From positions 1-38,037 of IMG/VR virus record IMGVR_UViG_3300031228_000018: DNA of 38,037 nt. One strand, 5' to 3'. The notes below the pieces were generated by a model. It had not been told where the DNA came from, ran no database searches, and was given only the letters and a program-made list of their open reading frames with translations. Position numbers and translations under genes: made by a program. Shown in pieces: positions 1-38,037 of this stretch (its first letter is position 1; the number at the start of each line of letters is the position of its first letter). This DNA comes from a virus. Taxonomy: Duplodnaviria; Caudoviricetes.

Positions 1-330
1 TGTGGCGAGGGTTTCACCTACGGCTGCTCGTGGGACTGGCAGTGCGACACCTGGGATGGTGATTCCTGTCTCTGCACGCGCCCCTGCGAATGGTGCCAGC
101 CCCGCAGGCCTGACCCGGCACTACAACAGGTTTTAGCCGAGGCCCTCGCCGCTTGCCTCGCGCCGGGATGCGAGCGGCCGCGCGGCTCTATTTGCACCCG
201 CACCCTTTGTCATGGGCGAGGCTATGGCCAGCACCTTTATGCGAAAGGGATCGAAGCGGGAACCGATGAGACGCCGCAGGCGGCTCAGCCCGAAGGGCAA
301 GAGCCCGGTGCCGGAGGCATTCGCCCATGA
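1..330 (+). CDS. 3' part of a Cys-rich protein spanning the circular junction (begins at 37755)
   Basis: Manual translation across the junction: ...DCSNCGGEGFTYGCSWDWQCDTWDGDSCLCTRPCEWCQP...AGGIRP*; its stop overlaps the next ATG (ATGA 327-330). Confidence 0.75.
   Translation, partial: CGEGFTYGCSWDWQCDTWDGDSCLCTRPCEWCQPRRPDPALQQVLAEALAACLAPGCERPRGSICTRTLCHGRGYGQHLYAKGIEAGTDETPQAAQPEGQEPGAGGIRP
2..127. repeat. Terminal direct repeat (assembly overlap), copy 1
   Basis: 2-127 is identical to 37912-38037; position 1 (t) differs from 37911 (g). The length fits a k=127 assembly overlap of a circular or permuted genome. Confidence 0.95.
241..326 (+). repeat. Structured dispersed element, copy A
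   Basis: GCGAA-A-GGGATC-GAAG-CGG(GAA)CCG-A-TGAGAC-GCC(GCA)GGC-GGCTCA-GCCC(GAA)GGGC-AA-GAGCCC-GG-TGCC(GGA)GGCA-TTCGC-CC; aligns with six other copies. Confidence 0.9.
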
Positions 331-4453: not shown

Positions 4454-5088
4454 CCCCCTTTTCCCGCCTGACCAACGAAACAAGCCTGGAGCACAAGCTC
4501 CGCTGCGCCCGGATGAAGGCGGATGCTCGGGACCGCGCCCAGCCGATCATCACGGCGGAAGCCCGGCGCCACTACGCCGAGGCGGACGTGATGCACGTCG
4601 AGACCGGAACGCGGGCCGTTACCTTCCGCCGCCGGAGCATTTCGTCGCTGGTCCGGATGCACCAGCTCGGCAGCATCGATAACGCGCAATACGAGGCGGC
4701 CCTACGCATTGCGCGGATAGCCGAGCGGATCGAACGCGACGTGGGCGTTCGCGGCTCTGCAGCGGAAGCGCGAGTGGACTGTTCGGGCACATCCCGCGAT
4801 GCACTGGTGGAGCGGCTGAACCAGGTACGCGATGAAATGACCTACACCCGCTGGCGCCGGCTCATCCCCCTGCCGCGCCGGATGATCCTCGACATGATCC
4901 TGTGCGACCGTCCGCTGGCGGCGACGGCGAGCATTCACGGCAAGCGGTGGGAGACGCGCAACGGCAAGCCGGGCGCGCGGGACTTGTTCATCGGCGCGCT
5001 GGACCTGTGGTGCGATCTGCGCGAGCGGATCGGCAAGGATGTGGATGAACGCGATTTGCACTGTGCCCATGCCCGCATCGCCGCTTGA
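4450..5088 (+). CDS. Putative late-transcription activator/antiterminator (Q-like)
   Basis: Last gene of the early-right operon, followed by a promoter-like non-coding region; LGSIDNAQYEAA segment and a C-terminal HTH-like region. Confidence 0.55.
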   Translation: MTPFSRLTNETSLEHKLRCARMKADARDRAQPIITAEARRHYAEADVMHVETGTRAVTFRRRSISSLVRMHQLGSIDNAQYEAALRIARIAERIERDVGVRGSAAEARVDCSGTSRDALVERLNQVRDEMTYTRWRRLIPLPRRMILDMILCDRPLAATASIHGKRWETRNGKPGARDLFIGALDLWCDLRERIGKDVDERDLHCAHARIAA

Positions 5089-5113: not shown

Positions 5114-5426
5114 CAGTTACAGCGCATTAGTGCGCCGACGAAATACAGAAAGCCCGCCACGCCTCTCAACGATGCGCACCATGGCGGGCTGCTGATTCCA
5201 GATTGCTGCGGGGCGTGTTCTTTGCATCCCCGATACCCACCGGATCGAGGATGAGCCTACCCGGAAGGATGGCTGCCGTTCCCGCAGCAACCCCATTGGC
5301 CCGAGCGCACCCCTACGCTCCGCCAAGCCCGCGCCAAACCCGGATCGCACTCGCATCGCTCGGCAGCCTTTCCCTGGGCACAACCCGCCGACCGCTCAAG
5401 TCCGGATGATTGCGCGCGGGCTGAAG

Positions 5427-14710: not shown

Positions 14711-15442
14711 GTGCGCGACTTCTTTAAGCCGGCGGACGGCCCGTTCTGGCTGACCAGGGTTCTTGCATCGATCAGGAGCGCTTTGGGCGACGAATGGTTC
14801 GCCCCGCTGAAGGTCAAGCAATTCGCAACGTCCGAGCTGCCCAACGCCGCAAGCTATGTCGGCGCGATCGTTTACGACGAGACCGAGCAACAGTTCAAAT
14901 TCTCCAACGGCACGGCGTGGGTGTCGTTCCTCTCGTCTTCCGGTTCGACCGGGTATGAGAGCCACCTGATCGACATTGGCGACGAAACGACCGCGCTTAC
15001 TACAGGCATCAAGAAGACGTTCCGGATGCCTTATGCATTCGAGCTGGAGCACCCGGAAGGAACCCCGCTGATCGGGGTCAGGGCGTCTCTTACCACGGCG
15101 TCATCGTCGGGCGCGGTGACAATCGACGTGTTGAAGGGCGGCGTTTCGATCTTCTCCACCACCCTGACCATCGATGAGAGCGAGACCACGTCCGTTGACG
15201 CCGCGACTGCGGGGGTCATCGCCACCAGCACGCTGGCCGATGATGACGAGATGGACATCGAAATTCTCGGGGCGGGGACGAACGCGGCCGGCCTCAAGGT
15301 CTGGCTGATCGGGGCCAGGATTGGCGGGGATAGCTTCGGCATCCTCATGGAAGGCGACGAGAGCGACACGCCGAGCGACGTGGAAGCGCTCGAAGGGGAC
15401 ATGACCGATGGCGACGACACCTTGCTGCAGGAAGGCGCATAA
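14711..15442 (+). CDS. Tail-associated structural protein
   Basis: Beta-rich, S/T-rich protein (GAIVYDETEQQFKFSNGTAW; AGLKVWLIG) with an acidic C-terminus, in the tail module. Confidence 0.6.
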   Translation: MRDFFKPADGPFWLTRVLASIRSALGDEWFAPLKVKQFATSELPNAASYVGAIVYDETEQQFKFSNGTAWVSFLSSSGSTGYESHLIDIGDETTALTTGIKKTFRMPYAFELEHPEGTPLIGVRASLTTASSSGAVTIDVLKGGVSIFSTTLTIDESETTSVDAATAGVIATSTLADDDEMDIEILGAGTNAAGLKVWLIGARIGGDSFGILMEGDESDTPSDVEALEGDMTDGDDTLLQEGA

Positions 15443-20739: not shown

Positions 20740-23700
20740 TGACACAGCCTTGGCTAAACGATCCTATCTTTCAGCCGCAGCCGGCGGCTCAAAACCCCTA
20801 CCACATCGCGCCCGATCCGATCCTTGCCCAGCGCGCGGCTGCGGAGGAAGCGCGCCGGCAGGAGGACCAACGAAGCCAGCAACGGGGCGATGTCCGCGCG
20901 GACATTGGCACCGGCATTCAGCAGCGCGGCGAGGATCGCCAGCAGGGCAATGATCAGTTCAACCAAATAGACACGCTCCGCCAGCGATACGACAAAATGC
21001 CGGCGATTGTGGAATACCGTACGACGCTGCCACAGCTTATGGCGGGTCTGAAGGCGCCCGACGATGGCACGGGCGACAGCTCGCTTGTCTACGCATGGGC
21101 GAAGGTCATGGACCCGATGGGCTCGGTTCGCGAAGGCGACGTCGAGATGGCGGGTTCTGGCTCGTCAACGCTGTCCGCGCAGGCGGCCAAGTTGCGCAGG
21201 GAGTTCAATCTCGACGGCGGCGGCGTGCTGCCCCCCGAGGTCCGCTCCGGTCTCAAGCGCGACATGAACACAAAGGCTGTCGAAACAAGCCGGTCCTATC
21301 TTCTCCAGCGCAAGCGCTTTGAGGATGAAGCCACCGCCATGGGTTTCGACCCGGAGCGAGTAGTCGGCCCGCATGACAGCCTCCCCTTCCGAGACGATTA
21401 TTATGAGACCACCGGGCAGATTTGGGGCGAGGGAGCGCCCGTTCGGCCGGGCATGGAGCGCGAACGCGGGGACATCCCCGGCATTCGCGAGCCGACCCAG
21501 AAGGAAGTCTTCTCCGGCGGCGTGCAATGGGGCAGCGACACGCCCGAGATGCAGGACAGCGCCGCGTCCTATCTGGAGAAGAATTACGGTCTCAAGCCGG
21601 GCGGCGAAGCCGAGATCAACGCTTTCTGGAACGCCAACCGGGGCAACCCTGACCTGACCATCGACGGGGTGCGTGAATGGTACAGCCGGCGCGGAATGCG
21701 CGTCAACGACGCCGACATTTCCGCTGCGCTGACCAACGCGCAGAAGCCCGGTGTCAATTTCACGGGTTCGGGTGCTGAAGCAGCGGAGCAATCGTATTAC
21801 AACCAGCTCGACCAAGTGCTTCAGCAGCGCGGCGCTGACCCCGAAAGCCTCTCTGGCGCAGCGGGCATAGGCGCGGCGCAGGGCTTCACGCTGAGCGGGA
21901 TAGACGAAGCCGGCGGTATCGGCGGGGCGGTCAATGCCACATTCCAAGGGCAGAATCCGATTGCCGGTTATCAAGCCGAGCGCGATCTGATCCGCAGAGA
22001 ACATGACCGAGCGGGTCAGGCGCATCCCTATGTCGCAGGGGGCGCGGAGTTGCTGGGTTCACTGCCGACCGCCGGCTTGGGTTTCGCCCGTGCGGGCCGC
22101 CTCGGTGGCCTTACGCGGCAGGCCACCACCATCGGCGATACGGCGCGGGCATCGCAGCTCGGCCGTGCGGCCATCGGGGCGACCGTGCGCCCCGGCGCAA
22201 CGGCAGGCGGGATTTACGGTTTCAACGCGGGCGAAGGCCCGAGCGGCAGCCTGACCGGCGCCGCAACGGGCGCCGCCATCGGCGCGGCAGTGTCGCCGGC
22301 CATGCAATGGGCAGCGCCCCATATCGGCAACGCGGCGCAGATGGTGACAAGCCGCTTCGGCCGGCAACCGAACCTCGCGCCGCGCGCACGTGACCTGGCT
22401 AATGCGGGCCAGGCTGAGCGGGTGACGGTCAACCGCGCGATGGTCGATCCTTCGCTGGCCAACCGCGTGTCTGGCGTTGACGCCACTCTGACCGGCGGCC
22501 CGCGTCTCCAGCGCGGCATGACGGACATAGAGGGCCAGATCGAGGGCCGCGTCAACCAGCTTGGCGGGCGCGGGCGGGCGATGAACGAAGTGACCGGCGG
22601 GCAGATGGTCGAACGTGCGGGGCGCCGCGCGATCGAGAAGACCGGCAAGTCCGCGCAACTCAAATATAACCGGGCTGAACGCTTGGCCGGCAACGCGCGG
22701 GTTGAACCTCGTGAAAGCCTTAGCCGCGTAGAATCTATGATTGCGGACCTCAGCGAAACGGCCAGCACCAACGCCGACGAAATCGCATATCTGCAAACCG
22801 TCCGCGAGGATCTAACCAAAAACCTCTCTGTGGGTGCCCTGCGCCGGATGCGAACCAAACTGCGGAAGAAGATCAGTAAAGGTGATCTGGTATTTGGCGA
22901 AGACGAGGCGCGGGTCTTGGCGATCATGGACGGCGCAGCGGACGACATCCGCGCCGGGCTGACGCAGCTAGGCAAGGCGGCGGCTGCCCGCGCGTTCGAC
23001 ACGGCCGACAAAGCCTATCGCGCCCGCATGGAATACATCGGGGGGACTGTTCAGACGCTCCTCGGCAAGCGCCAGGCTAACGTCCCTGCCGAGAAAATGT
23101 GGACGCGCTTCCAGGCGATGGCTTCGAACAGAGGCGATGCGGTAGGGCTCCGCAAGTTTTACGCCAGCCTGGCCCCAGATGAGCGGTCCGACGTGGCCGC
23201 CACGTTCGCGAGCGAGCTGGGCCGCAACAATGCCGGCGAGTTCTCCGTCGCGCATTTCCTCAGCCAGTCCGAGAACCTGTCCGAAGACGCGCTCCGCACC
23301 GTCTTTGGTCCGCAGGGGGCGGAATCGATCCGCAACCTTCGTATGCTCGGAACGGAGGTTAAGCGTGTTACCTCCGCCATGAACAGCCGCACTAGTAAGT
23401 CAGGCGTGGCATTGGGGTGGCGCTCGCGGCTCACCGATCTTCTGCTCGGCGGCGGGCTGGGCGGGGCGGCGGGCTTGGCAAGCGGCGGCACGGGCACGAC
23501 GCTCGGGGCTGTCGCCGGGGCCGCCGTTGTCGGCGGCGCGAATGCGGGCCGCAATTACCTTTCCGCCCGCGCCCTCATGTCGCCGGACCTGACGCGGTGG
23601 CTGCGGCAAACCCCGCAGTCGAGCAACCCACAGGCGATGCAGGCGCACATGCGGCGTCTTGGCGCGATTGCGCGAGCTGAGCCGATGTTGGCTGGCGACA

Positions 23701-28393: not shown

Positions 28394-28786
28394 TCATGGC
28401 GTGGCGTTCATCCGGTTGAACGCTTCAGTCATGCCCTTAAGGGCCTCAAGGTCCGCCAGGCGCTTTTCTTCGTTCGCTATCTCGTCGGCAATGCGTTGGC
28501 AAATTCGGCCGCCCTTAGTGTCGCGCTTGAACACCACAACCTGCCCCGCCATCAGGTGATAACGCCAGCCCTCCATGCGGAATGAGACGCCACTGTCCTT
28601 GTGCGAACAAGTGACGCCATGACGCTCCCATGCCCACGTTTCCAGCGCCAGTTCGCGGAGCATGTCGAGCAGTATCTTGCGCTCGCGTGTGTTGCGTTCA
28701 ACCAGCCACGGCATCTCGATAAAGATGAAGGCAATCACCAGAAGCCATACAGGCGTGGTCATTATCAGGATTCCCCACCACGGCAT
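28394..28786 (-). CDS. Membrane-anchored hypothetical protein
   Basis: MPWWGILIMTTPVWLLVIAFIFI TM segment followed by a soluble domain. Confidence 0.7.
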   Translation of the reverse strand: MPWWGILIMTTPVWLLVIAFIFIEMPWLVERNTRERKILLDMLRELALETWAWERHGVTCSHKDSGVSFRMEGWRYHLMAGQVVVFKRDTKGGRICQRIADEIANEEKRLADLEALKGMTEAFNRMNATP

Positions 28787-28798
28787 CAGATGGCGCCC

Positions 28799-28882
28799 GC
28801 GATAGCGATGGAAGCGGCGAAGCCGACGAGACACGTAGTGGCTCGGCCCGAAGGGCGACAGCGCGGGCCGTAAGGCATCGCC
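28799..28882 (+). repeat. Structured dispersed element, copy B
   Basis: GCGAT-A-GCGATG-GAAG-CGGC(GAA)GCCG-A-CGAGAC-AC(GTA)GT-GGCTCG-GCCC(GAA)GGGC-GA-CAGCGC-GG-GCC(GTAA)GGC-ATCGC-C. Confidence 0.9.
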
Positions 28883-28903
28883 AAAACCTCTCCTAAACCC
28901 TTA

Positions 28904-29647
28904 TTATTCATGGTCCTCATCCCCCTCAGGAGCGGCGGAGAGCGCACGGATGGCGGCGGCGATGCTAATCGGATGCCGCTTGTGATTGCTTACCAGGAAG
29001 ATCGCTGTTCTCTCTGCCACTTTCGCAGCCGCTTCGACCCCCTCCCTCCACCCCTGTTGGGCGGGGAGCGTGGCAAGGGCGGCGCGGGCGAGAGTTCGCG
29101 ACCTATCTCGACCATCAAAACCTCCTGGGTTTCGTTCGACGTTACGAGCCCAATCATCCCATGAAGTGCCGCCCGGATACTCCACGCTCCACAGCGCCTT
29201 CGCCGCCCGCTCAACAAGCGCGTCGTCGGCCACCGCTTCCACCTGTCCCTCACTGGCTGGGACAGATGTGCGGAGGGCGGCGGAATTGTGTTCGCGCATC
29301 GATTTAACGAAGGCCTCGCTCCCGTTTTGAACAGTTTCCGGGTCAACATTGAGGCCGTGAGCAAACGCCCGCAAAAGGCTTGCTCCGATGTGAGTTAGCC
29401 GCTCCAACTCCCCCGCGAGGGTATGTCCCTCATCACCGGGGGGAGAGGATGCGCGGGTGTTCCATGCGGCGCCGGCTTCGGCTTCCTTCGCCATCCGAGC
29501 GCGAGCGTGAGCCTTGCAGACAGAGCAGCGAACCTGCCAGCGCTCGTAAGGCCAATCCCACGAGCGCATTTCTGCCGATCCACCGCAGAACGGGCAGGAT
29601 AGCAGGCCATATCTGTGGGCCACCATGTCAGGGGTGTTAGCGGTCAT
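28904..29647 (-). CDS. Lar-family (restriction alleviation) zinc-finger domain protein with mosaic C-terminus
   Basis: LLSCPFCGG...VRCSVC...AAWNTRA. Confidence 0.75.
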   Translation of the reverse strand: MTANTPDMVAHRYGLLSCPFCGGSAEMRSWDWPYERWQVRCSVCKAHARARMAKEAEAGAAWNTRASSPPGDEGHTLAGELERLTHIGASLLRAFAHGLNVDPETVQNGSEAFVKSMREHNSAALRTSVPASEGQVEAVADDALVERAAKALWSVEYPGGTSWDDWARNVERNPGGFDGRDRSRTLARAALATLPAQQGWREGVEAAAKVAERTAIFLVSNHKRHPISIAAAIRALSAAPEGDEDHE

Positions 29648-29828
29648 GGGCGGGGCCTTTGATAGCGACGATCAGAGCCCCATCGCGCGTCAGGTTTGCG
29701 GGGTTTTCGCAGGGCCACGAGACGGCCTCGGCGGGTAGGTTCTCGGCCCCGCACTTGAAGCAAGTGCCGATGAACTTTTGGCCTTTGCCTTTGGGGCTTG
29801 TGCGAGAGAGCGCATGTGTATCAACCAC
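29637..29828 (-). CDS. Small Cys-containing hypothetical protein
   Basis: HALSRTSPKGKGQKFIGTCFKCGAENL...PCEN. Confidence 0.65.
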   Translation of the reverse strand: MVDTHALSRTSPKGKGQKFIGTCFKCGAENLPAEAVSWPCENPANLTRDGALIVAIKGPAHDR

Positions 29829-30051
29829 GATCAGCCTCCTGTGATGCGAGGATGCGGCACTCACGAAGGACCTCAACTCCAAGATCGTTCGGAAGGCACC
29901 AAAACGGGATCAGCTTGCCGCCGTTAGGTTCCGGCTCGATGTGCCAAAGCTCAACCGGCGTTTCATCCCAGCGATAGGCAATGACCGCTTCACGCTGCGC
30001 CTCACTCAGCCCCTTGGCGATCATTTCAGCGCGGGTGTCGGGTGGGGTCAT
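29821..30051 (-). CDS. Hypothetical protein
   Basis: MTPPDTRAEMIAKGLSEAQREA...; ATGA-coupled. Confidence 0.65.
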   Translation of the reverse strand: MTPPDTRAEMIAKGLSEAQREAVIAYRWDETPVELWHIEPEPNGGKLIPFWCLPNDLGVEVLRECRILASQEADRG

Positions 30052-30319
30052 GGCTCGATAACCTCCGCCCCACACCGGGGGCAGTTTTCCAACTTGCGAC
30101 TGTATTGGAGCCTGTTGACCGCGCAGCCGCAGCAGTCGGTAAAGCGTGTGCTGTTGTTTGGTCCCGAAACGTGCGTCTGTGTGGGAACGGGGGGTTTGGT
30201 CTGCTTTGGCCCGAAGTTCGAAGCGCCTTCAGACAGGGTGCTTCCGCGCCATGGTTCACTCATCACTTCTCTCCCTTCACGGTGCGCCATTGGGCAGGCG
30301 GGTGTCGGGTGGGGTCATG
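30031..30319. repeat. 22-bp direct repeat R2 (30031-30052 and 30298-30319)
   Basis: gcgggtgtcgggtggggtcatg occurs twice. Confidence 0.9.
30048..30263 (-). CDS. Small zinc-ribbon protein
   Basis: FTDCCGCAV...CPRCGAEV. Confidence 0.65.
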   Translation of the reverse strand: MSEPWRGSTLSEGASNFGPKQTKPPVPTQTHVSGPNNSTRFTDCCGCAVNRLQYSRKLENCPRCGAEVIEP

Positions 30320-30528
30320 CCCACCTCCCGTCACGTTTTGCTTGGGCTATCCGCGCCTTCACGTCGCGGCGGCCAACCTCAATGCAGTCGCAAATCACCG
30401 ACGCTTGGTAGTAGCTTGCGGGATGAGGCGGCACCCAAAGCGGCCCGCCACACGCCGGGCACTTCGGGTCGGCAGTTGCCATCAGGTCGCTCACACTCCC
30501 TCTCCCTTCACGGTGCGCCATTGGGCAG
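30269..30528. repeat. 29-bp direct repeat R1 (30269-30297 and 30500-30528)
   Basis: ctctcccttcacggtgcgccattgggcag occurs twice. Confidence 0.9.
30315..30494 (-). CDS. Small zinc-ribbon protein
   Basis: CPACGG...ICDC; GTGA-coupled. Confidence 0.65.
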   Translation of the reverse strand: MSDLMATADPKCPACGGPLWVPPHPASYYQASVICDCIEVGRRDVKARIAQAKRDGRWA

Positions 30529-30922
30529 CGGCGGCCTCTATTTCATCAACATCGACCACAAGCCCGCCTGAAATGCGCCCGAAGATCACCGCCATCGCGT
30601 CCCCTGCTGCGAGTAGGCGGGCCTCGTCATTTTCGACACCCGCCAAAGTGTCCACTGTTTGATGCAACTGTTCTCTGAGTTCGTCACGCTCTGCGAGTAG
30701 GTGGGCGATCATGTCGAGAAGTTCGGGAGCCGCTGAGATTAGGAGGGCGTCCGGCTCGCCGTCCTCGCTGTCGGCCCACGCCATTTCGGCGATGTGCTTG
30801 CGCGGGTTGCCATTGTCGTCTCGGGTCAGAATGACCATCGTGCCATCCGGGCGCTTCACGATTGACCACGGCCCCGGTGTGTGGCCCCGCAGCCGCTCGA
30901 TCAGGTCTGCTGGTTCGGTCAT
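30491..30922 (-). CDS. Hypothetical phage protein (HTPGPW family)
   Basis: GHTPGPW...DALLISAAPELL motif. Confidence 0.75.
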   Translation of the reverse strand: MTEPADLIERLRGHTPGPWSIVKRPDGTMVILTRDDNGNPRKHIAEMAWADSEDGEPDALLISAAPELLDMIAHLLAERDELREQLHQTVDTLAGVENDEARLLAAGDAMAVIFGRISGGLVVDVDEIEAAAAQWRTVKGEGV

Positions 30923-31227
30923 GCGGAAGGGCCTTGGGCGATGCCGCTTTCAGCGGCCCGCGCTCTATCGGCTTCGCCGACGGAGCCTGTAGTCTCCGCC
31001 CCTACGGGGTAACGATCGCTATCGCGGAGAGCTGCGGCAGCCTTCTGCGCCCTTTGGATGTCATCGCAGAGCCGCCACCACGCATAAGCGCCCGGCTTAA
31101 CCCAGCTTCGCAGTGCGCGCAGATAAAGGCATTGTGCTACCGCATGACCGCGCGGGGTGTCGCTGAGTTCGCGACCGAAGCCGAATAGAGCTCCGACTCG
31201 CTGCTGTTCGTTGGTCAGGTCGGTCAT
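30919..31227 (-). CDS. Hypothetical protein whose C-terminus is encoded by element copy C
   Basis: ATGA-coupled at both ends; ends RDSDRYPVGAETTGSVGEADRARAAESGIAQGPSA. Confidence 0.65.
   Translation of the reverse strand: MTDLTNEQQRVGALFGFGRELSDTPRGHAVAQCLYLRALRSWVKPGAYAWWRLCDDIQRAQKAAAALRDSDRYPVGAETTGSVGEADRARAAESGIAQGPSA
30936..31025 (-). repeat. Structured dispersed element, copy C
   Basis: Minus strand: GCGAT-A-GCGATC-GTTA-CCCC(GTA)GGGG-CGGAGAC(TACA)GGCTCCG-TCGGC(GAA)GCCGA-TA-GAGCGC-GG-GCCGC(TGAAA)GCGGC-ATCGC-CC. Confidence 0.9.
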
Positions 31228-31616
31228 GCGGCTTGGCTCCTGGGTTCGGACCACACGACGCCATTCTCAGCGCCGTACTTGTAAAGCAGTTCGAGCAGCC
31301 CGGCGAATTGCTCCACCGTCAGTTCAGACGAGCGGTGCCCCACGGGGAACATGCCCTGGCCCTCAAGCTTGGGCAGGAAGCGCAGTTCAGAGCCGAGGGC
31401 GTCCATGAATCGCAGCTTGGCGTCTTCGGCGCTGTAGGGCGCCATATCGGGCACCTGGCGCTGTATATCGGCGATCATCGGCCAGAGCTTGCGGTTCTGC
31501 GCATCCCGGCGCGTTTCCTTCGCCAGCTTCATGACGTGATCGGCCGGCGCGTTGTCGATCAGACGCTTGGCGTAATCGCGCTGCGTCGGGCCAATGAGGC
31601 GAACGGTGGCGCTCAC
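31224..31616 (-). CDS. ninB: NinB/Orf family recombination protein
   Basis: RRDAQNRKLWPMIADI...G.RSSELTVEQFAGLLELLYKYGAENGVVWSE. Confidence 0.88.
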   Translation of the reverse strand: MSATVRLIGPTQRDYAKRLIDNAPADHVMKLAKETRRDAQNRKLWPMIADIQRQVPDMAPYSAEDAKLRFMDALGSELRFLPKLEGQGMFPVGHRSSELTVEQFAGLLELLYKYGAENGVVWSEPRSQAA

Positions 31617-31930
31617 AGCACGTTGGCCTTGATCGCCGCAGCCCGGCATAGCCACGCCTCGGCAGCAAAATCCACGTCGCTGAACAGGCTTTCCTTGCCC
31701 ATCGCGTGAAGCGCCCGGTGGCAGTGGTCGGTCATCGGAACCACGAACTCGTGATCGCGCCGCCAGCGCTGCGCGGGGTGGCGGGTGAGCGGATGATGCA
31801 CCACCGTTGACGCCTCGCCGCAGCCGCACGCGCAGGGATGCTGGGCCATCAGCAACAGGTGATACTCGCGCTCCCGCTTGGTCGGGACCGGGTTGTATTT
31901 CGCCTTGATGTGGCCGGTTGGCGCGTTCAT
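31613..31930 (-). CDS. HNH-like zinc-binding protein (DUF968/Ref-like)
   Basis: PCACGCG...VVHH...RDHEFVVPMTDHCHRALH. Confidence 0.65.
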   Translation of the reverse strand: MNAPTGHIKAKYNPVPTKREREYHLLLMAQHPCACGCGEASTVVHHPLTRHPAQRWRRDHEFVVPMTDHCHRALHAMGKESLFSDVDFAAEAWLCRAAAIKANVL

Positions 31931-32091
31931 GTGTGCATCCGCCGCCAATAGCTGCGAGCGGCTGCGCGGTTGCACTCGCGGCAGTAGCGCCAGCCCTCGC
32001 CGTTCAGGAGGGTGTTCTCTGGCGTGTAGGCATGGCCTCGGCAGCAATGCGTCGTGGCCGCTCGCCGCCAGTTCTTGCCGGCGCGGGTCAT
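31927..32091 (-). CDS. Stand-alone small zinc-binding domain protein (54 aa)
   Basis: THCCRGHAYTPENT...RYCRECNR; ATGA-coupled to the next gene; not in the supplied ORF track. Confidence 0.75.
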   Translation of the reverse strand: MTRAGKNWRRAATTHCCRGHAYTPENTLLNGEGWRYCRECNRAAARSYWRRMHT

Positions 32092-32131
32092 TGCGCCCTG
32101 TCGCTATAGGTGAGGAAGCGAGGGAGGGGCA

Positions 32132-32758
32132 CTATGCCGCCTCCCTCAGGTAGCGGCTCTCCAGGTCCGCCACGGTTGCAGCGACTTCGGCGAGGAACTT
32201 GCGAACCTCGCCTTCGATTTCGTCAATCAGTGCGTCGTCGCGCTGAACGCGCTCGACGTGCAACTGCATTTCAAGCGGGAGACGCGGATCGAAGCTGGCG
32301 AAGTCGCACCACTGGCGTTCGGTGCAGGCGATTTGCCACTGCATTTGCAGGAGATACTTGCGGTCGATCCCCGCGCCGGTGAGGGTGGCGATATGGGTTG
32401 CCGAGTTCGGGCACTTCACCTCTAGCAGCCCCAGGCCGCCCACAAGGCCGTCAGGAGACGCGCCGGACATGACGATGGACGGGTGCGGGTGAAAGCCCGT
32501 TTCCTCGACCTCGACCCCGGCGTTGAACGAATACATGGCGCGCGCTTGCGGCTCGGTTTCAGTGCCCCACTGCATCGCCGCGTTGCTGAAGCTTTCGGCC
32601 ACGGTGCCGGTCAGGCGTTCGGTAACGAGCTGGGCATGATAGTTCGCCCGGTCGGCCCCGTAGCCGGTCTTGGTTTTCGCCATCACCTTGTGGATGCACG
32701 AAGCCGTGACCTTGCCGAGCCTTTCGGCGAACCATTCTGGCGAGCGCTGGTCAACCAT
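32132..32758 (-). CDS. YqaJ/lambda-exonuclease family protein
   Basis: QRSPEWFAERLGKVTAS, AMQWGTETEP, GASPDGLV, EVKCP, QMQWQ. Confidence 0.95.
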   Translation of the reverse strand: MVDQRSPEWFAERLGKVTASCIHKVMAKTKTGYGADRANYHAQLVTERLTGTVAESFSNAAMQWGTETEPQARAMYSFNAGVEVEETGFHPHPSIVMSGASPDGLVGGLGLLEVKCPNSATHIATLTGAGIDRKYLLQMQWQIACTERQWCDFASFDPRLPLEMQLHVERVQRDDALIDEIEGEVRKFLAEVAATVADLESRYLREAA

Positions 32759-33536
32759 TGGCCACCGCCTTTGCGTTCGTCTCAGCTTTAGCCGCTTCAG
32801 CGACTTGATCCTTCAGCCGATTGAGCGCGGCCTTCGCCTGCGTTGCCGTCAGGTCGGGGATCGCGTCCACCTTGTAGGCGGCGAGCAAGGCGGACAGCTT
32901 GTTCCCGCCGAGCGCTTGGCAATACTGCTGGACCAGGACGACATCGGCATCCGAGATTAGCTCCGGGGCTTTCTGCTGGCGCCCTACGTTGCCGTCGTCA
33001 TCCTCTTCGCCCACCGCGACGTTCCAGATGCCCTTAAGCAGGTAGCGCGCGCCGTAGGAGCCTGCGGCCCCGGCGGCGTGCGTCTTGGTCATCACGTCGC
33101 CGCCCTTCGCGCCCTTGCCGTCGGCCGGCATGTCGCGGTGATAGGTGCGGGTGTGGCCGCTGACGTGCGACAGGTAGCACAGCACGCGGACGTGCTCGGG
33201 CTTCGGGGAATCGCCTTCGTCAAAGCTATGCGAGAAGCCGTGCGCCGTGTAGATTGGGCGCAGCACCCTATCGAGCTTGTCGAAGGTCGCGTAGCGGCTC
33301 CGGGTTTGCGGGTTGGAAGCGTTCGCCGCGATGGGCCGCATTTCAGCCTGCGCCGCGTTCATCGCGATGTTGAAAGCCATCTCGGCATCGCGAGCCTGAA
33401 TGCGCTCTTGCATCGCGATCAGCCGCTCCATCTTATCGATGTCAACGGCGGGATCGCTGGCAGCTCGGGCAATAACCTCCATGAGGCTAGAACCGAACTG
33501 GACGGGCGGTTCTTCAATCTTGGCAACGGCGCTCAC
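32751..33536 (-). CDS. erf: ERF family single-strand annealing protein
   Basis: DIDKMERL, SRYATFD, GAAGSYGARYLL, EEDDDG motifs; GTG start at 33536. Confidence 0.88.
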   Translation of the reverse strand: MSAVAKIEEPPVQFGSSLMEVIARAASDPAVDIDKMERLIAMQERIQARDAEMAFNIAMNAAQAEMRPIAANASNPQTRSRYATFDKLDRVLRPIYTAHGFSHSFDEGDSPKPEHVRVLCYLSHVSGHTRTYHRDMPADGKGAKGGDVMTKTHAAGAAGSYGARYLLKGIWNVAVGEEDDDGNVGRQQKAPELISDADVVLVQQYCQALGGNKLSALLAAYKVDAIPDLTATQAKAALNRLKDQVAEAAKAETNAKAVANG

Positions 33537-33676
33537 CGCTTGTCTCCCTTGTTCGAGGACTGTTTTCTTGTGTGGAAGAGCTTCCAGAACTGGCGGTCCA
33601 GCTCGGCCATCGGGAGGATGCCTAGGCGCTGCTCCGTGGGGTTCGAGGATGCGAAGATGCGCGGAGAGGTTTTCAT
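33533..33676 (-). CDS. Small hypothetical protein (47 aa)
   Basis: Coupled at both ends; MKTSPRIFASSNP...GILPMAE. Confidence 0.55.
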   Translation of the reverse strand: MKTSPRIFASSNPTEQRLGILPMAELDRQFWKLFHTRKQSSNKGDKR

Positions 33677-34068
33677 GACGCATTCCCTTCGGGAACCGCG
33701 CTCTCGTGAACGGAACCCGTGCCGGTTTCCGCCCTGCGGGCTTCGATCGCTTGCGCGGCAGGCCAGTGCTTGCCGTTCTCAATTTGCTCGGAAACCCAGC
33801 GGATCGCGCCATTCCGAGCATCGTCGTGTTCCTCGTCGTGCGGGTTCCAACCAGAGTAGGACGGTTCCAGTTCGCGCAGCCAAGTGGCGATGGCCTTCTC
33901 GCGCCGGTTCACATATCCCGCGCTCGCCATCCCAAGACTGCAAACACCGCAGGGCATACCCGCACCACAGTCGCAGGCGTCGTCGCGGTTGGAAGTGCCA
34001 TCCCAAGGGCGATCGGCGTGGTTCTCACAGACCCACCCTTCGCCGCCGCAGTTGAGACATTCCGTCAT
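33673..34068 (-). CDS. Cys-rich protein whose C-terminus is encoded by element copy D
   Basis: CLNCGGEGWVCENHADRPW...CDCGAGMPCGVC; ends AQAIEARRAETGTGSVHESAVPEGNAS. Confidence 0.75.
   Translation of the reverse strand: MTECLNCGGEGWVCENHADRPWDGTSNRDDACDCGAGMPCGVCSLGMASAGYVNRREKAIATWLRELEPSYSGWNPHDEEHDDARNGAIRWVSEQIENGKHWPAAQAIEARRAETGTGSVHESAVPEGNAS
33677..33756 (-). repeat. Structured dispersed element, copy D
   Basis: Minus strand: GCGCA-A-GCGATC-GAAG-CCC(GCA)GGG-CGGAAAC-CG(GCA)CG-GGTTCCG-TTCACGA-GAGCGC-GG-TTCCC(GAA)GGGAA-TGCGT-C. Confidence 0.88.
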
Positions 34069-34265
34069 GCTGACACCTGCGCATCGAGTACGGCTTCAGC
34101 CAATTTGCGGAAGTCGTCCCAAGTCATCGTGGCAGTGCATGGCAGGCGAAGGCGGCAAATGGCGGCTGCGCCAGCCTCGATCTGCGCATCGCGGAACATG
34201 CCGTCCAACGCGGCCTTCTCGCGCTCGATCTGTTCCCAAGCGAGTTCGGATTTTACGCGGCCCAT
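34065..34265 (-). CDS. Hypothetical protein
   Basis: AGGAG ribosome-binding site; MGRVKSELAWEQ... Confidence 0.65.
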   Translation of the reverse strand: MGRVKSELAWEQIEREKAALDGMFRDAQIEAGAAAICRLRLPCTATMTWDDFRKLAEAVLDAQVSA

Positions 34266-34462
34266 CAGCGTTCTCCTGCGATAGTGGATCGAAGCCCGTC
34301 AGGGCCAAGACCCGAAGGGGCTTGGTTCACGAGAGCCACGGTGGCGCCGAAGGCGGCAATCGCCCAAACGACGATGACAGCAGCCCTCAAAGCTTCCTCC
34401 ACCTCCCTAGCCAAAGCCCATCCCCCATACTCAAGACGAAAGGCGGTTATGGTGCGGATCAT
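34265..34462 (-). CDS. Small hypothetical protein reading through element copy E in antisense
   Basis: Coupled at both ends (ATGA and TGATG). Confidence 0.55.
   Translation of the reverse strand: MIRTITAFRLEYGGWALAREVEEALRAAVIVVWAIAAFGATVALVNQAPSGLGPDGLRSTIAGER
34278..34365 (+). repeat. Structured dispersed element, copy E
   Basis: GCGAT-A-GTGGATC-GAAG-CCC(GTCA)GGG-CCAAGAC-CC(GAA)GG-GGCTTGG-TTCACGA-GAGCCAC-GG-TGGCGCC(GAA)GGCGGCA-ATCGC-CC. Confidence 0.88.
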
Positions 34463-34842
34463 TTCGCCAGCTCCATTCCACGCTTGAGGGCGGCGAGGGC
34501 GATCTTCACTTCGGGCGTGCTGTCGTTCTGGCCAGATTGCAGCATTCGGTCAGTTGCCGCCGACCAGTGGACTGTGCATTCGACCAGCTTCCGCGCCTCG
34601 ATCAGCAGCGGGTCCACCGGATCGGGGAGGATGAAGGCGTAGAGCTTTGCCCACTCTTTCGAGCTGTCGCCGTAGTGGCGGGCGTGTTCCTTCGCCGCAT
34701 CGGATACATCCTGGATGAAATGAGAGAATGCATTCAGGACGAGATCGCCACGAATGAAATCGCTGGTCGAAACCGGCTCACGGCATTCTGCATCTAGCAG
34801 CTCACACGCCTTCGCCATCGCCGCCTCTGAAACCTCAGCCAT
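34459..34842 (-). CDS. Hypothetical protein
   Basis: FILPDPVDPLLIEAR...ALAALKRGMEL; coupled to its neighbours. Confidence 0.7.
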   Translation of the reverse strand: MAEVSEAAMAKACELLDAECREPVSTSDFIRGDLVLNAFSHFIQDVSDAAKEHARHYGDSSKEWAKLYAFILPDPVDPLLIEARKLVECTVHWSAATDRMLQSGQNDSTPEVKIALAALKRGMELAK

Positions 34843-35006
34843 CACGAATGCTCCTCAAGAAATGCAGCGACACGATCACCCGATGCCTTGAGGTCAGCCT
34901 TGTGCTGTTCATGGCGGGATTGGAGATCGGCCAGGCACAGGTCATGGGCTGTAAGCCATGTGTTCAGGGCGGCATCGAAGGTGTCGAGGCGGGGACGGTA
35001 GGTCAA
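34842..35006 (-). CDS. Small hypothetical protein (54 aa)
   Basis: TTG start in a TTGA overlap; MTYRPRLDTFDAALNTWL...FLEEHS*. Confidence 0.55.
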   Translation of the reverse strand: MTYRPRLDTFDAALNTWLTAHDLCLADLQSRHEQHKADLKASGDRVAAFLEEHS

Positions 35007-35275
35007 AGCCGGTTCTCCCGATTGAACTTGCGATGACCCTTTGCCAGCCCGAGCATCTCGTCATCGGACAGCAGCACGCGGGCCACGTCATCGGCGGGCG
35101 TCTCTGCCGGGCGGGAAAGGGCCTCTGCCCATACCTTCGCGGTTTCGGCGGGATCGCCATCAACCAGCTTGGCAAGGCGCTGGCACCGTTCGGCGGGCCA
35201 TTGCGTGCGGAAGCGGGCGAGCGCTTCCTCGGCGGCATCCTCGCGATTGAGGGGAATGCGAACGGGTATACTCAT
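35003..35275 (-). CDS. Hypothetical protein
   Basis: 90 aa ORF coupled to its neighbours. Confidence 0.65.
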   Translation of the reverse strand: MSIPVRIPLNREDAAEEALARFRTQWPAERCQRLAKLVDGDPAETAKVWAEALSRPAETPADDVARVLLSDDEMLGLAKGHRKFNRENRL

Positions 35276-35613
35276 GACTGCCCCCGCGCTTTGGCGATGG
35301 CCGCGCGCATTCGTCTGGTCAGCGGCGCCCCCGGATTGGGGAAGTAGCCATTGGGACCAAGGTGCGAGACAAACGCCTCACTCACTTCCAGAAGCTCGCT
35401 GGCGGTCATTGCGAGCGGCACCCGTTTGAGCGCGGCGTAAACCTTGCACGTGATCTCGGTGGGGATGCTCAGGTCTTTATCGAGTTCCGTCATGATGAGA
35501 GCCGGCAACGGCGTATGCCCCGCGATAGGGATGCTGCTCTGCTGAGACTGCGCAGCAGGCTCAGGCCGTAGGCCAGCAGCCCGGACCTCCGAAGGAGGTA
35601 TCGCCCCCTTCAT
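35272..35613 (-). CDS. Hypothetical protein whose N-terminus is encoded by element copy F (antisense)
   Basis: ATGA-coupled start; ends ...RAAIAKARG. Confidence 0.65.
   Translation of the reverse strand: MKGAIPPSEVRAAGLRPEPAAQSQQSSIPIAGHTPLPALIMTELDKDLSIPTEITCKVYAALKRVPLAMTASELLEVSEAFVSHLGPNGYFPNPGAPLTRRMRAAIAKARGQS
35522..35606 (+). repeat. Structured dispersed element, copy F
   Basis: GCGAT-A-GGGATGCT-GCTCTG-CTGAGAC-TGC(GCA)GCA-GGCTCA-GGCC(GTA)GGCC-AGCAGCCC-GG-ACCTCC(GAA)GGAGGT-ATCGC-CC. Confidence 0.88.
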
Positions 35614-35693
35614 GCCACACCGCCCAGCAGCATCACGCCACCTATCACGATGAACGCGAGAACAATCGCGTGGGGGAGGTGGTATTTGATCAT
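35610..35693 (-). CDS. Very small membrane peptide (27 aa)
   Basis: MIKYHLPHAIVLAFIVIGGVMLLGGVA*; ATGA overlaps at both ends. Confidence 0.6.
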   Translation of the reverse strand: MIKYHLPHAIVLAFIVIGGVMLLGGVA

Positions 35694-36163
35694 AGGATGT
35701 GTCTCCAAGTATTCCGGGCGCGAACAAGGCGGATGCACTTCCGAGAAACACCGTAGTGCTTCGCGGCAGCGTATACGCTTAGTCCGCCTGTGCGGATTTC
35801 ACGCACTTTGGGCGTCGTTAGTTTGGCCTGACCGTGAGTTTCGCCGAAGCTGCCTCGCCCCTTCGCCAGCATATCGGCGGTGTTGTCTTTCGCGCTACCA
35901 GCGAACAGATGGGCGGGATTGACGCAGCTCGGGTTATCGCAAGAGTGGCAGACCAGCAGTGCGCCGGGGTGCTTCCCTTCGAACATCTCGTAAGCGACAC
36001 GGTGGGCGCGGTAACCGGCGCCCTGGATGTAGAAGTTCCCGTAGCCCTTGGCGTCACGGTAGCCCTGCCACAGCCAGCAGCCATTCTCGGCTACCAGTAC
36101 GCGGCGCATGAACCGCTGGCGGTCCTTGTCGGTCGGCGTGAATGAGGGGCGGGGCGATCTCAT
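35690..36163 (-). CDS. HNH homing-type endonuclease
   Basis: GCWLWQG...AHRVAYE...VCHSCDNPSCVNPAHLFAGSAKDN plus a C-terminal HTH; start probably ATG 36163. Confidence 0.92.
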   Translation of the reverse strand: MRSPRPSFTPTDKDRQRFMRRVLVAENGCWLWQGYRDAKGYGNFYIQGAGYRAHRVAYEMFEGKHPGALLVCHSCDNPSCVNPAHLFAGSAKDNTADMLAKGRGSFGETHGQAKLTTPKVREIRTGGLSVYAAAKHYGVSRKCIRLVRARNTWRHIL

Positions 36164-36171
36164 GCCCCTTA

Positions 36172-36254
36172 TTCGCACATGGCGAAAGGTATTGCAACAC
36201 CTAATTTCGCCCCGCGCGAAAAAAGAGGTTGCGGACGGGTTCGGGCTGTGCGAA
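36172..36254. promoter_or_regulatory. Divergent promoter region with three TTCGC-N5-GCGAA operators
   Basis: TTCGCACATGGCGAA 36172-36186, TTCGCCCCGCGCGAA 36206-36220, TTCGGGCTGTGCGAA 36240-36254; starts exactly 34 bp apart. Confidence 0.82.
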
Positions 36255-36262
36255 AAGACGGC

Positions 36263-36463
36263 ATGGCCAAACCCCTAACATATCCGGAACTCGCTAAGGC
36301 GGCTGGTATCAGCCAATCCTACGCCTTCGAGATCATCAATGACAAGCGCCGCCCGTCTTTGACGATGGCCCTGCAAATCTACGATGCGACCGGCCTGCAA
36401 TACGGCCCGCTCGATGGCCTCAACAAGCGCGACATAGACGCAGCACGAAAGATGGCAGCATGA
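36263..36463 (+). CDS. Cro-like HTH regulator
   Basis: LTYPELAKAAGISQSYAFEIINDKRRPSLTMALQIYDATG; first gene of the rightward operon. Confidence 0.88.
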   Translation: MAKPLTYPELAKAAGISQSYAFEIINDKRRPSLTMALQIYDATGLQYGPLDGLNKRDIDAARKMAA

Positions 36464-36548
36464 CCGACCGCCTCGCGTGGGTAATGCTCCTTCGCTGGCG
36501 TGCCCGAAAGCTGCGCATCGCGGGTTGGTCGCTGTTCCGGTGCCAAGC

Positions 36549-36671
36549 ATGACTCGCGCGTTTCTTGCCGCGATCAAGGTTCGCTCCATACTCCGGATCA
36601 ACGCGCGTCATTGGTGCGTGTCCGTGCCCGAGGCGGCGAACGACACGGCCGAACCGTGGAGTGCGGCATAG
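36549..36671 (+). CDS. Small hypothetical protein
   Basis: ATGA-coupled to a 30-aa ORF at 36460-36552 and abutting the next gene. Confidence 0.45.
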   Translation: MTRAFLAAIKVRSILRINARHWCVSVPEAANDTAEPWSAA

Positions 36672-37325
36672 GTGACTGTCGCGGCGCTCTATGTTGAGAC
36701 TGGCGGTTGCTACTTCGGCCTGCCCGATGTGGAGCCGTGGGATGAAGCCCGCGATGCTCGCGAGTACGCCGGCCCGCATCCCGTTGTCGCGCATCCGCCC
36801 TGCCAGCGGTGGGGCAAGTTGTGGGCCGGGCAACCGCTGTTCATCAAGCGCACTGGCGAGCGGAAAACCAAAGGCGACGACGGCGGCTGTTTCAAGAGCG
36901 CCCTCCGCACTATCCGCAAGTTCGGCGGCGTGATCGAACACCCGTGGGGATCGCACGCCTGGCCGCACTTCGGCTTCAACGTGCCACCGCGCTCCGGTGG
37001 CTGGATACGAGCCCATTGGCAGGGTTACTGGACCTGTTGCGTCGAGCAGGGACGCTACGGCCACTATGCCCGCAAGCCCACACTGCTGCTGGTCTATGGG
37101 GTCTCTCATAGAGACTTGCCCGAGCTGGATTGGGGCATCGGCGAGCGCCAGCTTGACCCGGCTGTTGTCGAGCGGATGGGCCTCAAGCGCGCCATCCGCC
37201 TCGGTGAGGTTGGCGGACGCGGCGGCGGGACCGACAGCGCCCCGCGCATCGGCACTCCGGAGCCCTTCCGCGATCTCCTGCTGAGCATAGCTCGCTCGGC
37301 TACCCGGCAAGCGGAGGCGGCATGA
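36672..37325 (+). CDS. Atypical C5-cytosine methyltransferase-like phage protein
   Basis: VVAHPPC (motif IV-like), VIEHP (ENV-like), RKPTLL; lacks a canonical FxGxG. Confidence 0.6.
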   Translation: MTVAALYVETGGCYFGLPDVEPWDEARDAREYAGPHPVVAHPPCQRWGKLWAGQPLFIKRTGERKTKGDDGGCFKSALRTIRKFGGVIEHPWGSHAWPHFGFNVPPRSGGWIRAHWQGYWTCCVEQGRYGHYARKPTLLLVYGVSHRDLPELDWGIGERQLDPAVVERMGLKRAIRLGEVGGRGGGTDSAPRIGTPEPFRDLLLSIARSATRQAEAA

Positions 37326-37612
37326 TTGGCCTCTCGCACTGCATAACTTGTGGTGAATCCTGGCACGGCGGCTTCGTCACCGGGCCGTGTGCATGGAGCG
37401 GCTGTCCCCTCGCGCATCACAACGACCCCGCGCGCCCCTATGATCCCGTAGCGCGGGAACCTCGTCACCGGGGCGCTCTGCCTCCCGGCTCTGCCCCGGT
37501 GGCGCTTTCCTCCAATTCGAATCACGCAAGCCCCTTTGCTGCGCAATCCACAGTTCGCAACGGCACTGCCGGGCTTGTGCCGCTGCGGGACAACTCTTGG
37601 AGGTGGGCATGA
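37322..37612 (+). CDS. Hypothetical protein
   Basis: CITC...C...C N-terminus; ATGA-coupled at both ends. Confidence 0.55.
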   Translation: MIGLSHCITCGESWHGGFVTGPCAWSGCPLAHHNDPARPYDPVAREPRHRGALPPGSAPVALSSNSNHASPFAAQSTVRNGTAGLVPLRDNSWRWA

Positions 37613-37758
37613 GACCCCTGGACGACCCCCTCTGGACCGATCCCGAGGACATCCAGCGCATGGAGGAAGCTCCCGACAGTGCGTCCGCAGCTCTTGTATG
37701 TGGAGGTATTGCTGTGTTGCTTGTTGGCGCCGGGTTGCTGGCGGCGGTGATCCGGTGA
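37609..37758 (+). CDS. Small membrane protein (49 aa)
   Basis: GGAGG ribosome-binding site; C-terminal hydrophobic segment ALVCGGIAVLLVGAGLLAAVIR. Confidence 0.6.
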   Translation: MRPLDDPLWTDPEDIQRMEEAPDSASAALVCGGIAVLLVGAGLLAAVIR

Positions 37759-38037
37759 GCGGGGCGCATCAGCCTTCGGCTGACCGGGCTGGCGGTCCTT
37801 CGGACCTGAGCCTCGCAAGCGAGTCTCAGCCAAAGGCGCTCATCCCTTGCGCGGACGATTACGAGCCCGAGTACGGCGACGATTATGACTTGGGCGACTG
37901 CTCGAATTGCGGTGGCGAGGGTTTCACCTACGGCTGCTCGTGGGACTGGCAGTGCGACACCTGGGATGGTGATTCCTGTCTCTGCACGCGCCCCTGCGAA
38001 TGGTGCCAGCCCCGCAGGCCTGACCCGGCACTACAAC
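37755..38037 (+). CDS. 5' part of the Cys-rich protein that continues at position 128 and stops at 330
   Basis: GTG in a GTGA overlap; the frame stays open through the terminal repeat. Confidence 0.75.
   Translation, partial: MSGAHQPSADRAGGPSDLSLASESQPKALIPCADDYEPEYGDDYDLGDCSNCGGEGFTYGCSWDWQCDTWDGDSCLCTRPCEWCQPRRPDPALQ
37762..37852 (-). repeat. Structured dispersed element, copy G
   Basis: Minus strand: GCGCA-A-GGGATG-AGC-GCC(TTT)GG-CTGAGAC-TCGCTTGCGA-GGCTCA-GGTCC(GAA)GGACC-GC-CAGCCC-GG-TCAGCC(GAA)GGCTGA-TGCGC-CC. Confidence 0.88.
37912..38037. repeat. Terminal direct repeat (assembly overlap), copy 2
   Basis: Identical to 2-127. Confidence 0.95.

Follow-up and report, generated by a model that had tools for sequence, protein, structure and literature searches.

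How do phages gain or exchange single accessory genes at clean borders without visible homology? This long-standing question is raised by IMGVR_UViG_3300031228_000018, a Caudoviricetes phage contig of 38,037 nucleotides (nt), which was analysed over its whole length and is referred to here as the window. A first-pass annotation of its sequence had singled out seven dispersed copies of a multi-branched, covarying element with C-GNA-G triloops as a candidate family of structured single-stranded DNA (ssDNA). Based on the analysis reported here, the element is real, widespread and structurally unusual, and pairs of its copies form a cassette architecture, in which two inverted copies face one small gene. 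The reading that we favour, at a probability of roughly 0.45, is that the element is a folded-ssDNA joining site served by a putative, probably host-encoded, enzyme. As the borders carry a defined structure with a base-precise joint, the question becomes testable.

Covariance model R1, which comprises 67 sequences including the window's seven copies and was run without filters, returns seven matches of 54-79 bits in the window, the next best score being 14.1 bits. A strict structural descriptor recovers 6/7 copies, missing the one at 34278, which has a mismatch in its last hairpin, and 40 block-wise dinucleotide shuffles of the window yielded a mean of 0.125 descriptor matches. The copies lie where the first-pass annotation had placed them, with model ends shifted by one base for two (28799-28883 and 33676-33756), and its observation that none sits among the virion genes holds, as zero copies fall inside the virion and lysis block. 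What it overlooked is that four of the seven make two inverted pairs around small genes (Table 1). A CxxCGGEG motif is present in the small open reading frames (ORFs) of both window cassettes, at 33673-34068 (-) and at 37755-38037 continued in 128-330 (+).

The element is 75-100 bases long. Reading 5′ to 3′, the outer stem of five base pairs (GCGNN) and one A lead into a second stem interrupted by an A.G mismatch; next come a variable head, which contains a third stem, also with an A.G mismatch, plus one or two small hairpins, and then GG, the terminal hairpin, the outer-stem partner and CC. In the predicted fold, the base is a three-way junction of the outer stem, the A.G-interrupted second stem and the terminal hairpin. 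The covariation that had been proposed for the stems persists when pairing is not imposed: among 120 distinct copies collected with a sequence-only pattern, six free positions of the outer and second stems are 96-98% Watson-Crick. In alignment A1, 17/22 pairs change on both sides and 0/500 shuffles reach its score, a result that is partly circular, the rows having been chosen by structure; RNAalifold, given 16 copies taken from phages, plasmids and chromosomes, arrives at the same stems. The GG linker, first described as invariant, is mostly but not fully kept across the family (126/142 distinct rows), and its pairing with the CC tail was rejected, as the two do not covary.

The triloops likewise proved to be a feature of the whole family and of one strand, with 353 C-GNA-G loops on the folded strand and 3 on the complement of 184 copies; the same copies contain 51 GNRA and 4 UNCG loops. 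The terminal hairpins of 116 copies hold 419 Watson-Crick pairs and 1 G-T pair; RNA helices commonly contain many more G-U pairs. Support for the outer stem from folding with DNA parameters is modest, because folding programs leave A.G pairs unscored: the mean pair probability is 0.26, against 0.11-0.15 with RNA parameters and 0.08-0.12 for the reverse strand. The element is GC-rich and without promoter boxes, and it is predicted to fold only when its own strand is single-stranded. Rfam 15 gave no match to it in the window (E up to 5) or in five other loci (E up to 0.5).

How are the copies arranged? Double-stranded DNA (dsDNA) phage records chosen for having a copy, 43 in all, hold 1-15 copies each. 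Counting neighbours at most 1 kb apart in dsDNA phages and the window, 41/63 are minus-then-plus, where strand shuffles give a mean of 18.6 and a maximum of 30 (5000 shuffles), and 9/63 are in direct orientation. In this geometry the 5′ ends face inward and the tails outward. Loci that had not been used before repeat the pattern (14/21; shuffle mean 6.7, maximum 13), as do 14 whole genomes that overlap the first set, in which 33/49 neighbours are minus-then-plus and 66/100 copies are paired, five of 105 rows (three duplicates and two weak) having been dropped; copies leave 55-99% of the circle free in these genomes. The enclosed stretch measures 130-860 nt and usually contains one ORF that reads through both copies, the cargo frame being open through 49/56 sense and 60/67 antisense copies. 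Frame offsets 0, 1 and 2 are used by 39, 16 and 1 sense copies and by 28, 31 and 8 antisense copies; several frames are used, and therefore there is no single conserved peptide, which disposes of the peptide-level conservation in one frame and strand that the first-pass annotation had held open. Among 56 cassette ORFs scanned from other phages, 10 have Pfam matches: three methyltransferases, an HNH protein, an RNA ligase, Fic, ATP-grasp and three DUFs. Partners resemble each other no more than random copies do (identity 0.643 versus 0.638) and have a common outer-stem pentamer in 1/52 pairs (9.9 expected) and in 0/14 new pairs. They also differ beyond expectation at two linked positions, not at a third; the differences may reflect two subfamilies that pair with each other rather than a code in the outer stem alone. 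No target-site duplication was seen in 41 pairs.

The boundaries of the copies are sharp on the 5′ side. Between copies at least 84% identical, 5′ homology stops no more than 5 nt from the first G in 123/125 pairs, the other 2 sharing both flanks, and 3′ homology sometimes runs 23-63 nt beyond the copy. Among the 19 pairs at least 92% identical, five, representing about three independent events, keep 45-63 nt of 3′ flank together with 0-2 nt of 5′ flank. Two copies that are 100% identical, L264 and L265 (L-numbers are the locus labels of this analysis), lie on one contig in unrelated flanks, and copy 6 of the window recurs in L087 along with 72 nt of its 3′ flank. Relatives reveal swapped and missing units. 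L043 and L054 have common outer flanks and different cargo at two sites; at a third, L043 has a bare stop-start overlap where L054 holds a whole unit, and one L043 cargo is present in L054 without elements, at 87% identity and with both junction positions reading GCG. In each of L075/L062 and L077/L072, the two loci have the same cargo but different elements and flanks, and around whole units homology resumes 3-20 nt outside the 3′ ends. Relative to L004 and L041, Pf4-type phages have an extra 52 nt, placed exactly at the 5′ boundary that those two loci show, and Pf1 has an AT-rich segment in the same slot, which is a replacement and not an empty site; no simple empty site for a single copy was found. 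Different hairpin modules are stacked end to end before ssb in Pf-type inoviruses (L015 5480-5783, L004, L041 and L129), with gain or replacement of modules at a single junction. The repeated leading-region modules of F and R46 have the element as their outer edge. The cassette architecture is established by these comparisons, and the chemistry behind it is what we infer throughout.

Table 1. Element copies, cassettes and other features of the window, followed by plasmid copies (coordinates of the respective record; aa, amino acids)
Feature	Position	Strand	Score (bits)	Remarks
Copy 1	241..326	+	78	Outer stem GCGAA; closes cassette B on the right; sense orientation, 3′ end of the cargo ORF, whose stop (328-330) overlaps an ATG at 327
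Copy 2	28799..28883	+	79	Unpaired; the antisense strand reads as a 30-codon ORF (28786-28878) with TGATG coupling to the following gene
Copy 3	30936..31025	-	58	Unpaired; in sense at the 3′ end of ORF 30919-31254
Copy 4	33676..33756	-	64	Outer stem GCGCA/TGCGT, with one G-T; closes cassette A on the left; sense orientation, 3′ end of ORF 33673-34068
Copy 5	34278..34365	+	57	Outer stem GCGAT; right end of cassette A; antisense within a 65-aa ORF (34265-34462)
Copy 6	35522..35606	+	54	Unpaired; antisense at the 5′ end of ORF 35272-35613
Copy 7	37762..37852	-	60	Outer stem GCGCA; closes cassette B on the left; antisense orientation, 5′ end of the cargo ORF, which starts at 37755
Cassette A	33676(-)/34278(+); cargo 33757..34277	-		Cargo 521 nt; 131-aa CxxC ORF and 66-aa ORF, no Pfam match
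Cassette B	37762(-)/241(+); cargo 37853..38037 then 128-240	+		161-aa ORF with CxxC motifs, spans the circle join
Terminal repeat	2..127 = 37912-38037	+		126 nt; contig closes as a circle
Virion and lysis block	about 6.4-27.9 kb			Terminase, portal, capsid, ejection and lysis genes
Recombination module	31224..33537	-		NinB-like, Ref/DUF968-like nuclease, RecE/YqaJ-type exonuclease, Erf annealase (PHROGs)
Ref/DUF968-type small Zn/His nuclease	31616-31930	-		Family profile match, E 2.5e-7; relatives match PF16786 and PF06147
Plasmid F, two copies	58091-58172 and 63479-63560			Strand antisense to the leading genes
R46 (L365), three copies				Two of them border a 655-nt repeat of the CUP-controlled region
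IncN plasmid, seven copies				All on one strand
Agrobacterium plasmid, two copies

The first-pass annotation was made from one phage, and the occurrence of the element in F, IncN plasmids and Pf phages lay outside its view. Pattern scans of IMG/VR found at least 123 and at least 133 loci, and the estimated numbers of stretches are about 260 and 430. Phages with ssDNA genomes carry one copy each, or two in L026, and the copy is on the gene-sense strand in 13 lineages (14 groups, the Pf-like L004 and L041 being counted as one): Pf4-type prophages, L001, L002, L004, L020/L076, L026, L028, L031, L041, L050, L071, L373, which is assigned by Rep match only, L413 and the microvirus L018. The gene-sense strand is taken to be the packaged one on the model of Ff and phiX174. 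L396, whose strand is ambiguous, was left out of this count; it is an odd composite with a resolvase, a ParB-like protein and Zot on the plus strand and inovirus-like coat genes on the minus strand, and its copy follows the strand of the coat genes. Each of the F copies stands at the outer edge of a 559-nt repeat containing Frpo; the ssiD record, as given in supplement rows of PMC11541004, ends ~95 nt before it. Gene layout, together with the accessible part of 10.1101/2023.02.15.528439, places the plasmid copies of F, R46, L363 and L364 on what is probably the transferred strand. No element was found in the 25-60 kb stretch of ColIb-P9 that was searched.

The F-type copy matches 4462 plasmid records and is present in 2276/5426 complete E. 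coli genomes, at 4870 plasmid versus 60 chromosome places. Genomic copies extend to Alpha-, Beta- and Gammaproteobacteria, Nitrospiraceae, Acidobacteriaceae, Phycisphaerae and Bacteroidota, and frequently have relaxases, integrases, ssb, ardC or defence genes in their vicinity. Genomes picked for having a match gave 1-17 matches in 16/18 cases; at the thresholds used, a genome pattern scan of 121 loci gave 36 model matches, two of them in one locus, most pattern matches being due to chance. Bacteroidota copies (L172, L214, L241, L245 and L251) keep the three-way base and have the head replaced by a long purine-rich zipper, and they constitute a second subfamily. In L183 (5001-6892) the copy directly precedes a type III Thoeris operon, and the genomic copy L182 is near a QatC-like gene. 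Copies run with the genes in ssDNA phages, against them in plasmid leading regions and on both strands in dsDNA phages, so the element follows the strand that becomes single-stranded and not the transcript. The ssDNA function suggested at the outset gains support from this behaviour and from a fold that is strand-specific and nearly free of G-T pairs.

What mechanism could generate such cassettes? We propose that a putative, probably host-encoded enzyme acts at the foot of the outer stem, where it would join the first G of the element to a foreign 3′ end; conceivable candidates are type IA topoisomerases, XerCD, PriA and the Ref-like nuclease. If this happened once on each strand, the small gene in between would be enclosed as a cassette, and a single polar chemistry used twice would produce the observed minus-then-plus geometry, the sharp 5′ edge and the looser outer edges. 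The single strands may be supplied by Erf/exonuclease recombination, rolling-circle replication, conjugation or the virion. Partners might differ in the outer stem so that each can fold despite the presence of its partner's complement on the same strand; alternatively, the difference might keep partners from reacting with each other. The outer ends would be resolved less precisely, by short homology in the 3′ tails, and translation would continue along the host operon thanks to the read-through ORFs and the stop-start overlaps. A polar joint would also predict the one-way facing of copies in ssDNA phages and on transferred strands. A wider and more doubtful proposal is that phage cassettes and plasmid leading regions depend on one conserved host enzyme and belong to a shared, integrase-free gene-capture system of Gram-negative mobile elements. 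Phages would then use two mismatched copies on opposite strands to trap or swap accessory genes in frame, and F-like and IncN plasmids would rebuild their anti-defence leading regions while single-stranded in transfer.

A number of observations weigh against a joining site. The phage pairs are not fully independent, and three of the window's seven copies have no partner. A cognate enzyme was looked for and not found: no recombinase or transposase is common to the 14 element-rich genomes and the window, and the neighbours of chromosomal copies are mixed. In tiny ssDNA genomes the single copy is often near Rep or between Zot and Rep, a location reminiscent of an origin. In the comparison of flanks, similarity below ~90% may mirror constraint and not recent descent. 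At the junction, one comparison shows a clear GCG and three others show none or a doubtful one; the clear case could equally be explained by loss of elements. Contigs of the source sample, which as contigs only are a weak test, contain no clean excision or inversion joint; a single joint that connects two copies (33756 to 35520) is present and is most simply explained as the copy of another organism. Two DNA sequencing runs of one sample, which may be the source, are on record, and no RNA data set is listed.

Among the functions that the first-pass annotation had left open, recombination or mobility is now the best supported, priming is the main rival and a decoy is weaker. In the priming alternative, the element is a signal for complementary-strand synthesis, which a conserved host factor, be it the PriA primosome, DnaG or RNA polymerase, would begin at the unstructured 3′ tail. 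A lone copy would serve to convert ssDNA phage genomes and transferred strands, and two convergent copies would create a small self-copying amplicon of the enclosed gene, to be inserted elsewhere by Erf-type recombination. We regard this as possible, if on balance unlikely. It yields the pair geometry too and suits the single copies of small genomes, their gene-sense strand in the 13 ssDNA-phage lineages and the inferred transferred strand in F (2), R46 (3), the IncN plasmid (7) and the Agrobacterium plasmid (2). The 3′ tail is G-poor, with G at position -1 in 1/130 copies, the resumption of homology just outside the 3′ ends of whole units is compatible with it, and the AT-rich segment of Pf1 looks as if an origin had been swapped for an origin. 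All 3 R46 copies are preceded by a 14-nt motif that matches, with at most one base changed, the 3′ motif found in the phiX174 F-G intergenic region; this motif stands directly 5′ of the IncN copies at 22080, 23791 and 26296 of L365 and at 15167 and 15797 of L363, but before 0/187 dsDNA-phage copies. Against priming, R1 finds nothing in phiX174, G4, ColE1, Pf1 or a pIGMS31-like plasmid, where scores reach at most 11 bits and true copies score 49-63, the 3′ tail is not enriched in CTG (25 tails versus 30 control windows of 184), the published ssiD record of F ends short of the element, and the sharp 5′ boundary demands an added trimming step. In the accessible part of a published study of F (10.64898/2026.01.09.698686), rifampicin abolishes the early conversion that takes place beside the Frpo copies, conversion is late at the locus past the ssb-proximal copy, and the data show no rifampicin-resistant priming at the element. 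A hybrid of priming, trimming to the stem and Erf-assisted template switching at GCG is possible and is counted here under priming. If priming were true, the element would be a new class of single-strand origin, found in several phyla, and a lesser novelty.

A shield, roadblock or decoy is improbable. The fold would block exonucleases or the loading of SSB or RecA, or titrate a host sensor of invading ssDNA, with the boundary effects as a by-product of polymerase or nuclease stalling. Copies do reside on invading single strands beside genes for anti-restriction, SSB and SOS inhibition, DNA methyltransferases account for the 3/56 cassette ORFs mentioned above, and the accessible part of 10.64898/2026.01.09.698686 describes the neighbouring F hairpin as a proven roadblock. 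Minus-then-plus pairing, mismatched partners and identical copies at unrelated sites are left unexplained.

Less probable still is a passive repeat that offers short homologies to Erf or RecA, with pairs and boundaries left by selection for intact frames. Genes for Erf and an exonuclease are present, and recombination between IncN CUP repeats is reported in the accessible text of PMC3490853. A Ref/DUF968-like nuclease is found near Erf in 5/5 close relatives with elements versus 4/35 without, and in 1/3 distant Erf relatives with elements versus 6/30 without; a relative of the window's nuclease occurs in 14/14 fetched element-rich phage genomes. This nuclease may be just a lineage marker. Passive homology sits poorly with partners that average only 64% identity, with the conservation of structure and not of sequence, and with inoviruses and plasmids that maintain single-strand orientation without Erf or exonuclease genes. 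A structured RNA or a conserved peptide tag, to which the sense copies of ssDNA phages and the frequent translation of copies within ORFs might point, is scarcely credible given copies that are antisense in plasmids, on both strands in dsDNA phages and in several reading frames, the near absence of G-T pairs, the excess of GNA triloops over GNRA and UNCG loops and the lack of an Rfam match.

Beyond the element, the window is a complete circle of ~37.9 kb, as indicated by the terminal repeat and by the cassette B ORF, which in a reading-frame check stays open across the join; the IMG/VR record classes the contig as linear and 47% complete, which disagrees with the terminal repeat. The recombination module would expose single strands, and methyltransferase and HNH genes were also found in the PHROGs scan of the window. 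Lagging-strand polarity around the replication gene was rejected for the window copies, which lie on both strands in a contig of flat GC skew. An abiF RNA motif is present at 5153-5189 (+) (Rfam RF03085, 50 bits, cut-off 37 bits); the ORFs scanned around it match no PHROGs family, and a lone antitoxin-mimic RNA is one possibility. Elsewhere, a small ORF is flanked by a perfect 29-nt direct repeat (30269-30297 and 30500-30528), a second, element-free way to delimit an accessory gene.

What are the implications of an element of this kind? A structure that had gone unannotated stands next to Frpo in F, in the CUP repeats of IncN plasmids and in the Pf prophages of Pseudomonas. Given its presence in these elements and in 2276/5426 of the E. 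coli genomes, whatever binds it therefore bears on plasmid establishment and on the biology of filamentous phages, in laboratory systems that are well studied.

How does the element compare with known systems? The literature searched, mostly without subscription papers, contains no description of this fold, and the older single-strand initiation (ssi) literature may hold part of it under another name; together with the Rfam result, this agrees with the initial view that the element is not a named family. It resembles attC in being a folded single strand with conserved mismatches, in the primacy of structure over sequence, in the movement of single genes and in the proposed crossover at the stem foot. 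An attC site is a hairpin with RYYYAAC and GTTRRRY boxes at its ends, present once per gene in direct orientation and used by the tyrosine recombinase IntI, whereas the element is multi-branched and comes as two inverted sites on opposite strands. Such boxes are at the ends of 1/184 copies, no integrase is encoded among 77 scanned window ORFs, and a tyrosine recombinase is near 2/14 genome loci scanned.

Closer in location are Frpo/ssiD (ssp1) of F and the CUP repeats of IncN plasmids, since the element lies inside the same leading-region modules and, like Frpo/ssp, on the inferred transferred strand in F, R46, L363 and L364. It is nevertheless a separate fold outside the ssiD record, lacks -10 and -35 boxes (a Frpo-type hexamer within one mismatch occurs in 12/184 copies) and is also found in phages without Frpo. 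Identity with ssiD or ssiE of F was rejected, as the element is not among the records in the accessible supplement of PMC11541004. With regard to ssi1-3 of ColIb-P9, the stretch searched is free of the element.

Origins of the phiX174 primosome assembly site (pas), G4 and RSF1010 types share with it the viral or displaced strand, GNA mini-hairpins and G.A pairs, and a phiX174-like motif adjoins the IncN copies. RSF1010 ssiA and ssiB even form an inverted pair on opposite strands, but we know of no origin of these three types that brackets swappable genes. The pas heptamer GAAGCGG occurs in 38/184 copies without homology to, or the fold of, the phiX174 or ColE1 pas. As R1 matches none of them, identity was rejected for the phiX174 pas, the G4 ori, the ColE1 pas, Pf1 and the pIGMS31-like ssi. 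The G4 ori has a CTG start triplet 3′ of its hairpins, which in the element's tails is no commoner than in control windows, and the A site of the ABC primosome has a DnaA box in its hairpin stem, seen in 0/184 copies. Repetitive extragenic palindromes (REP/REPIN, associated with RAYT) and IS200/IS605 are likewise short folded ssDNA units that spread without target duplication and can form inverted doublets. REP has a conserved tetranucleotide at the hairpin foot; GTAG, GGAG or CAGA is at the foot of 0/184 copies, so the Rfam or REP match that the first-pass annotation had allowed for did not materialize. Element partners, in contrast, are dissimilar, 130-860 nt apart and mostly in mobile elements; single copies have both ends on one strand, as in IS200/IS605, and pairs do not, and no HUH transposase was seen beside the element in ORF and neighbour scans. 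According to the accessible part of Weinberg et al. (PMC5737381), an ssDNA structure more complex than a hairpin would be rare. The element lacks defining features of attC, the pas, the G and A sites, Frpo and REP; it is attC-like in its logic and single-strand-origin-like in its location.

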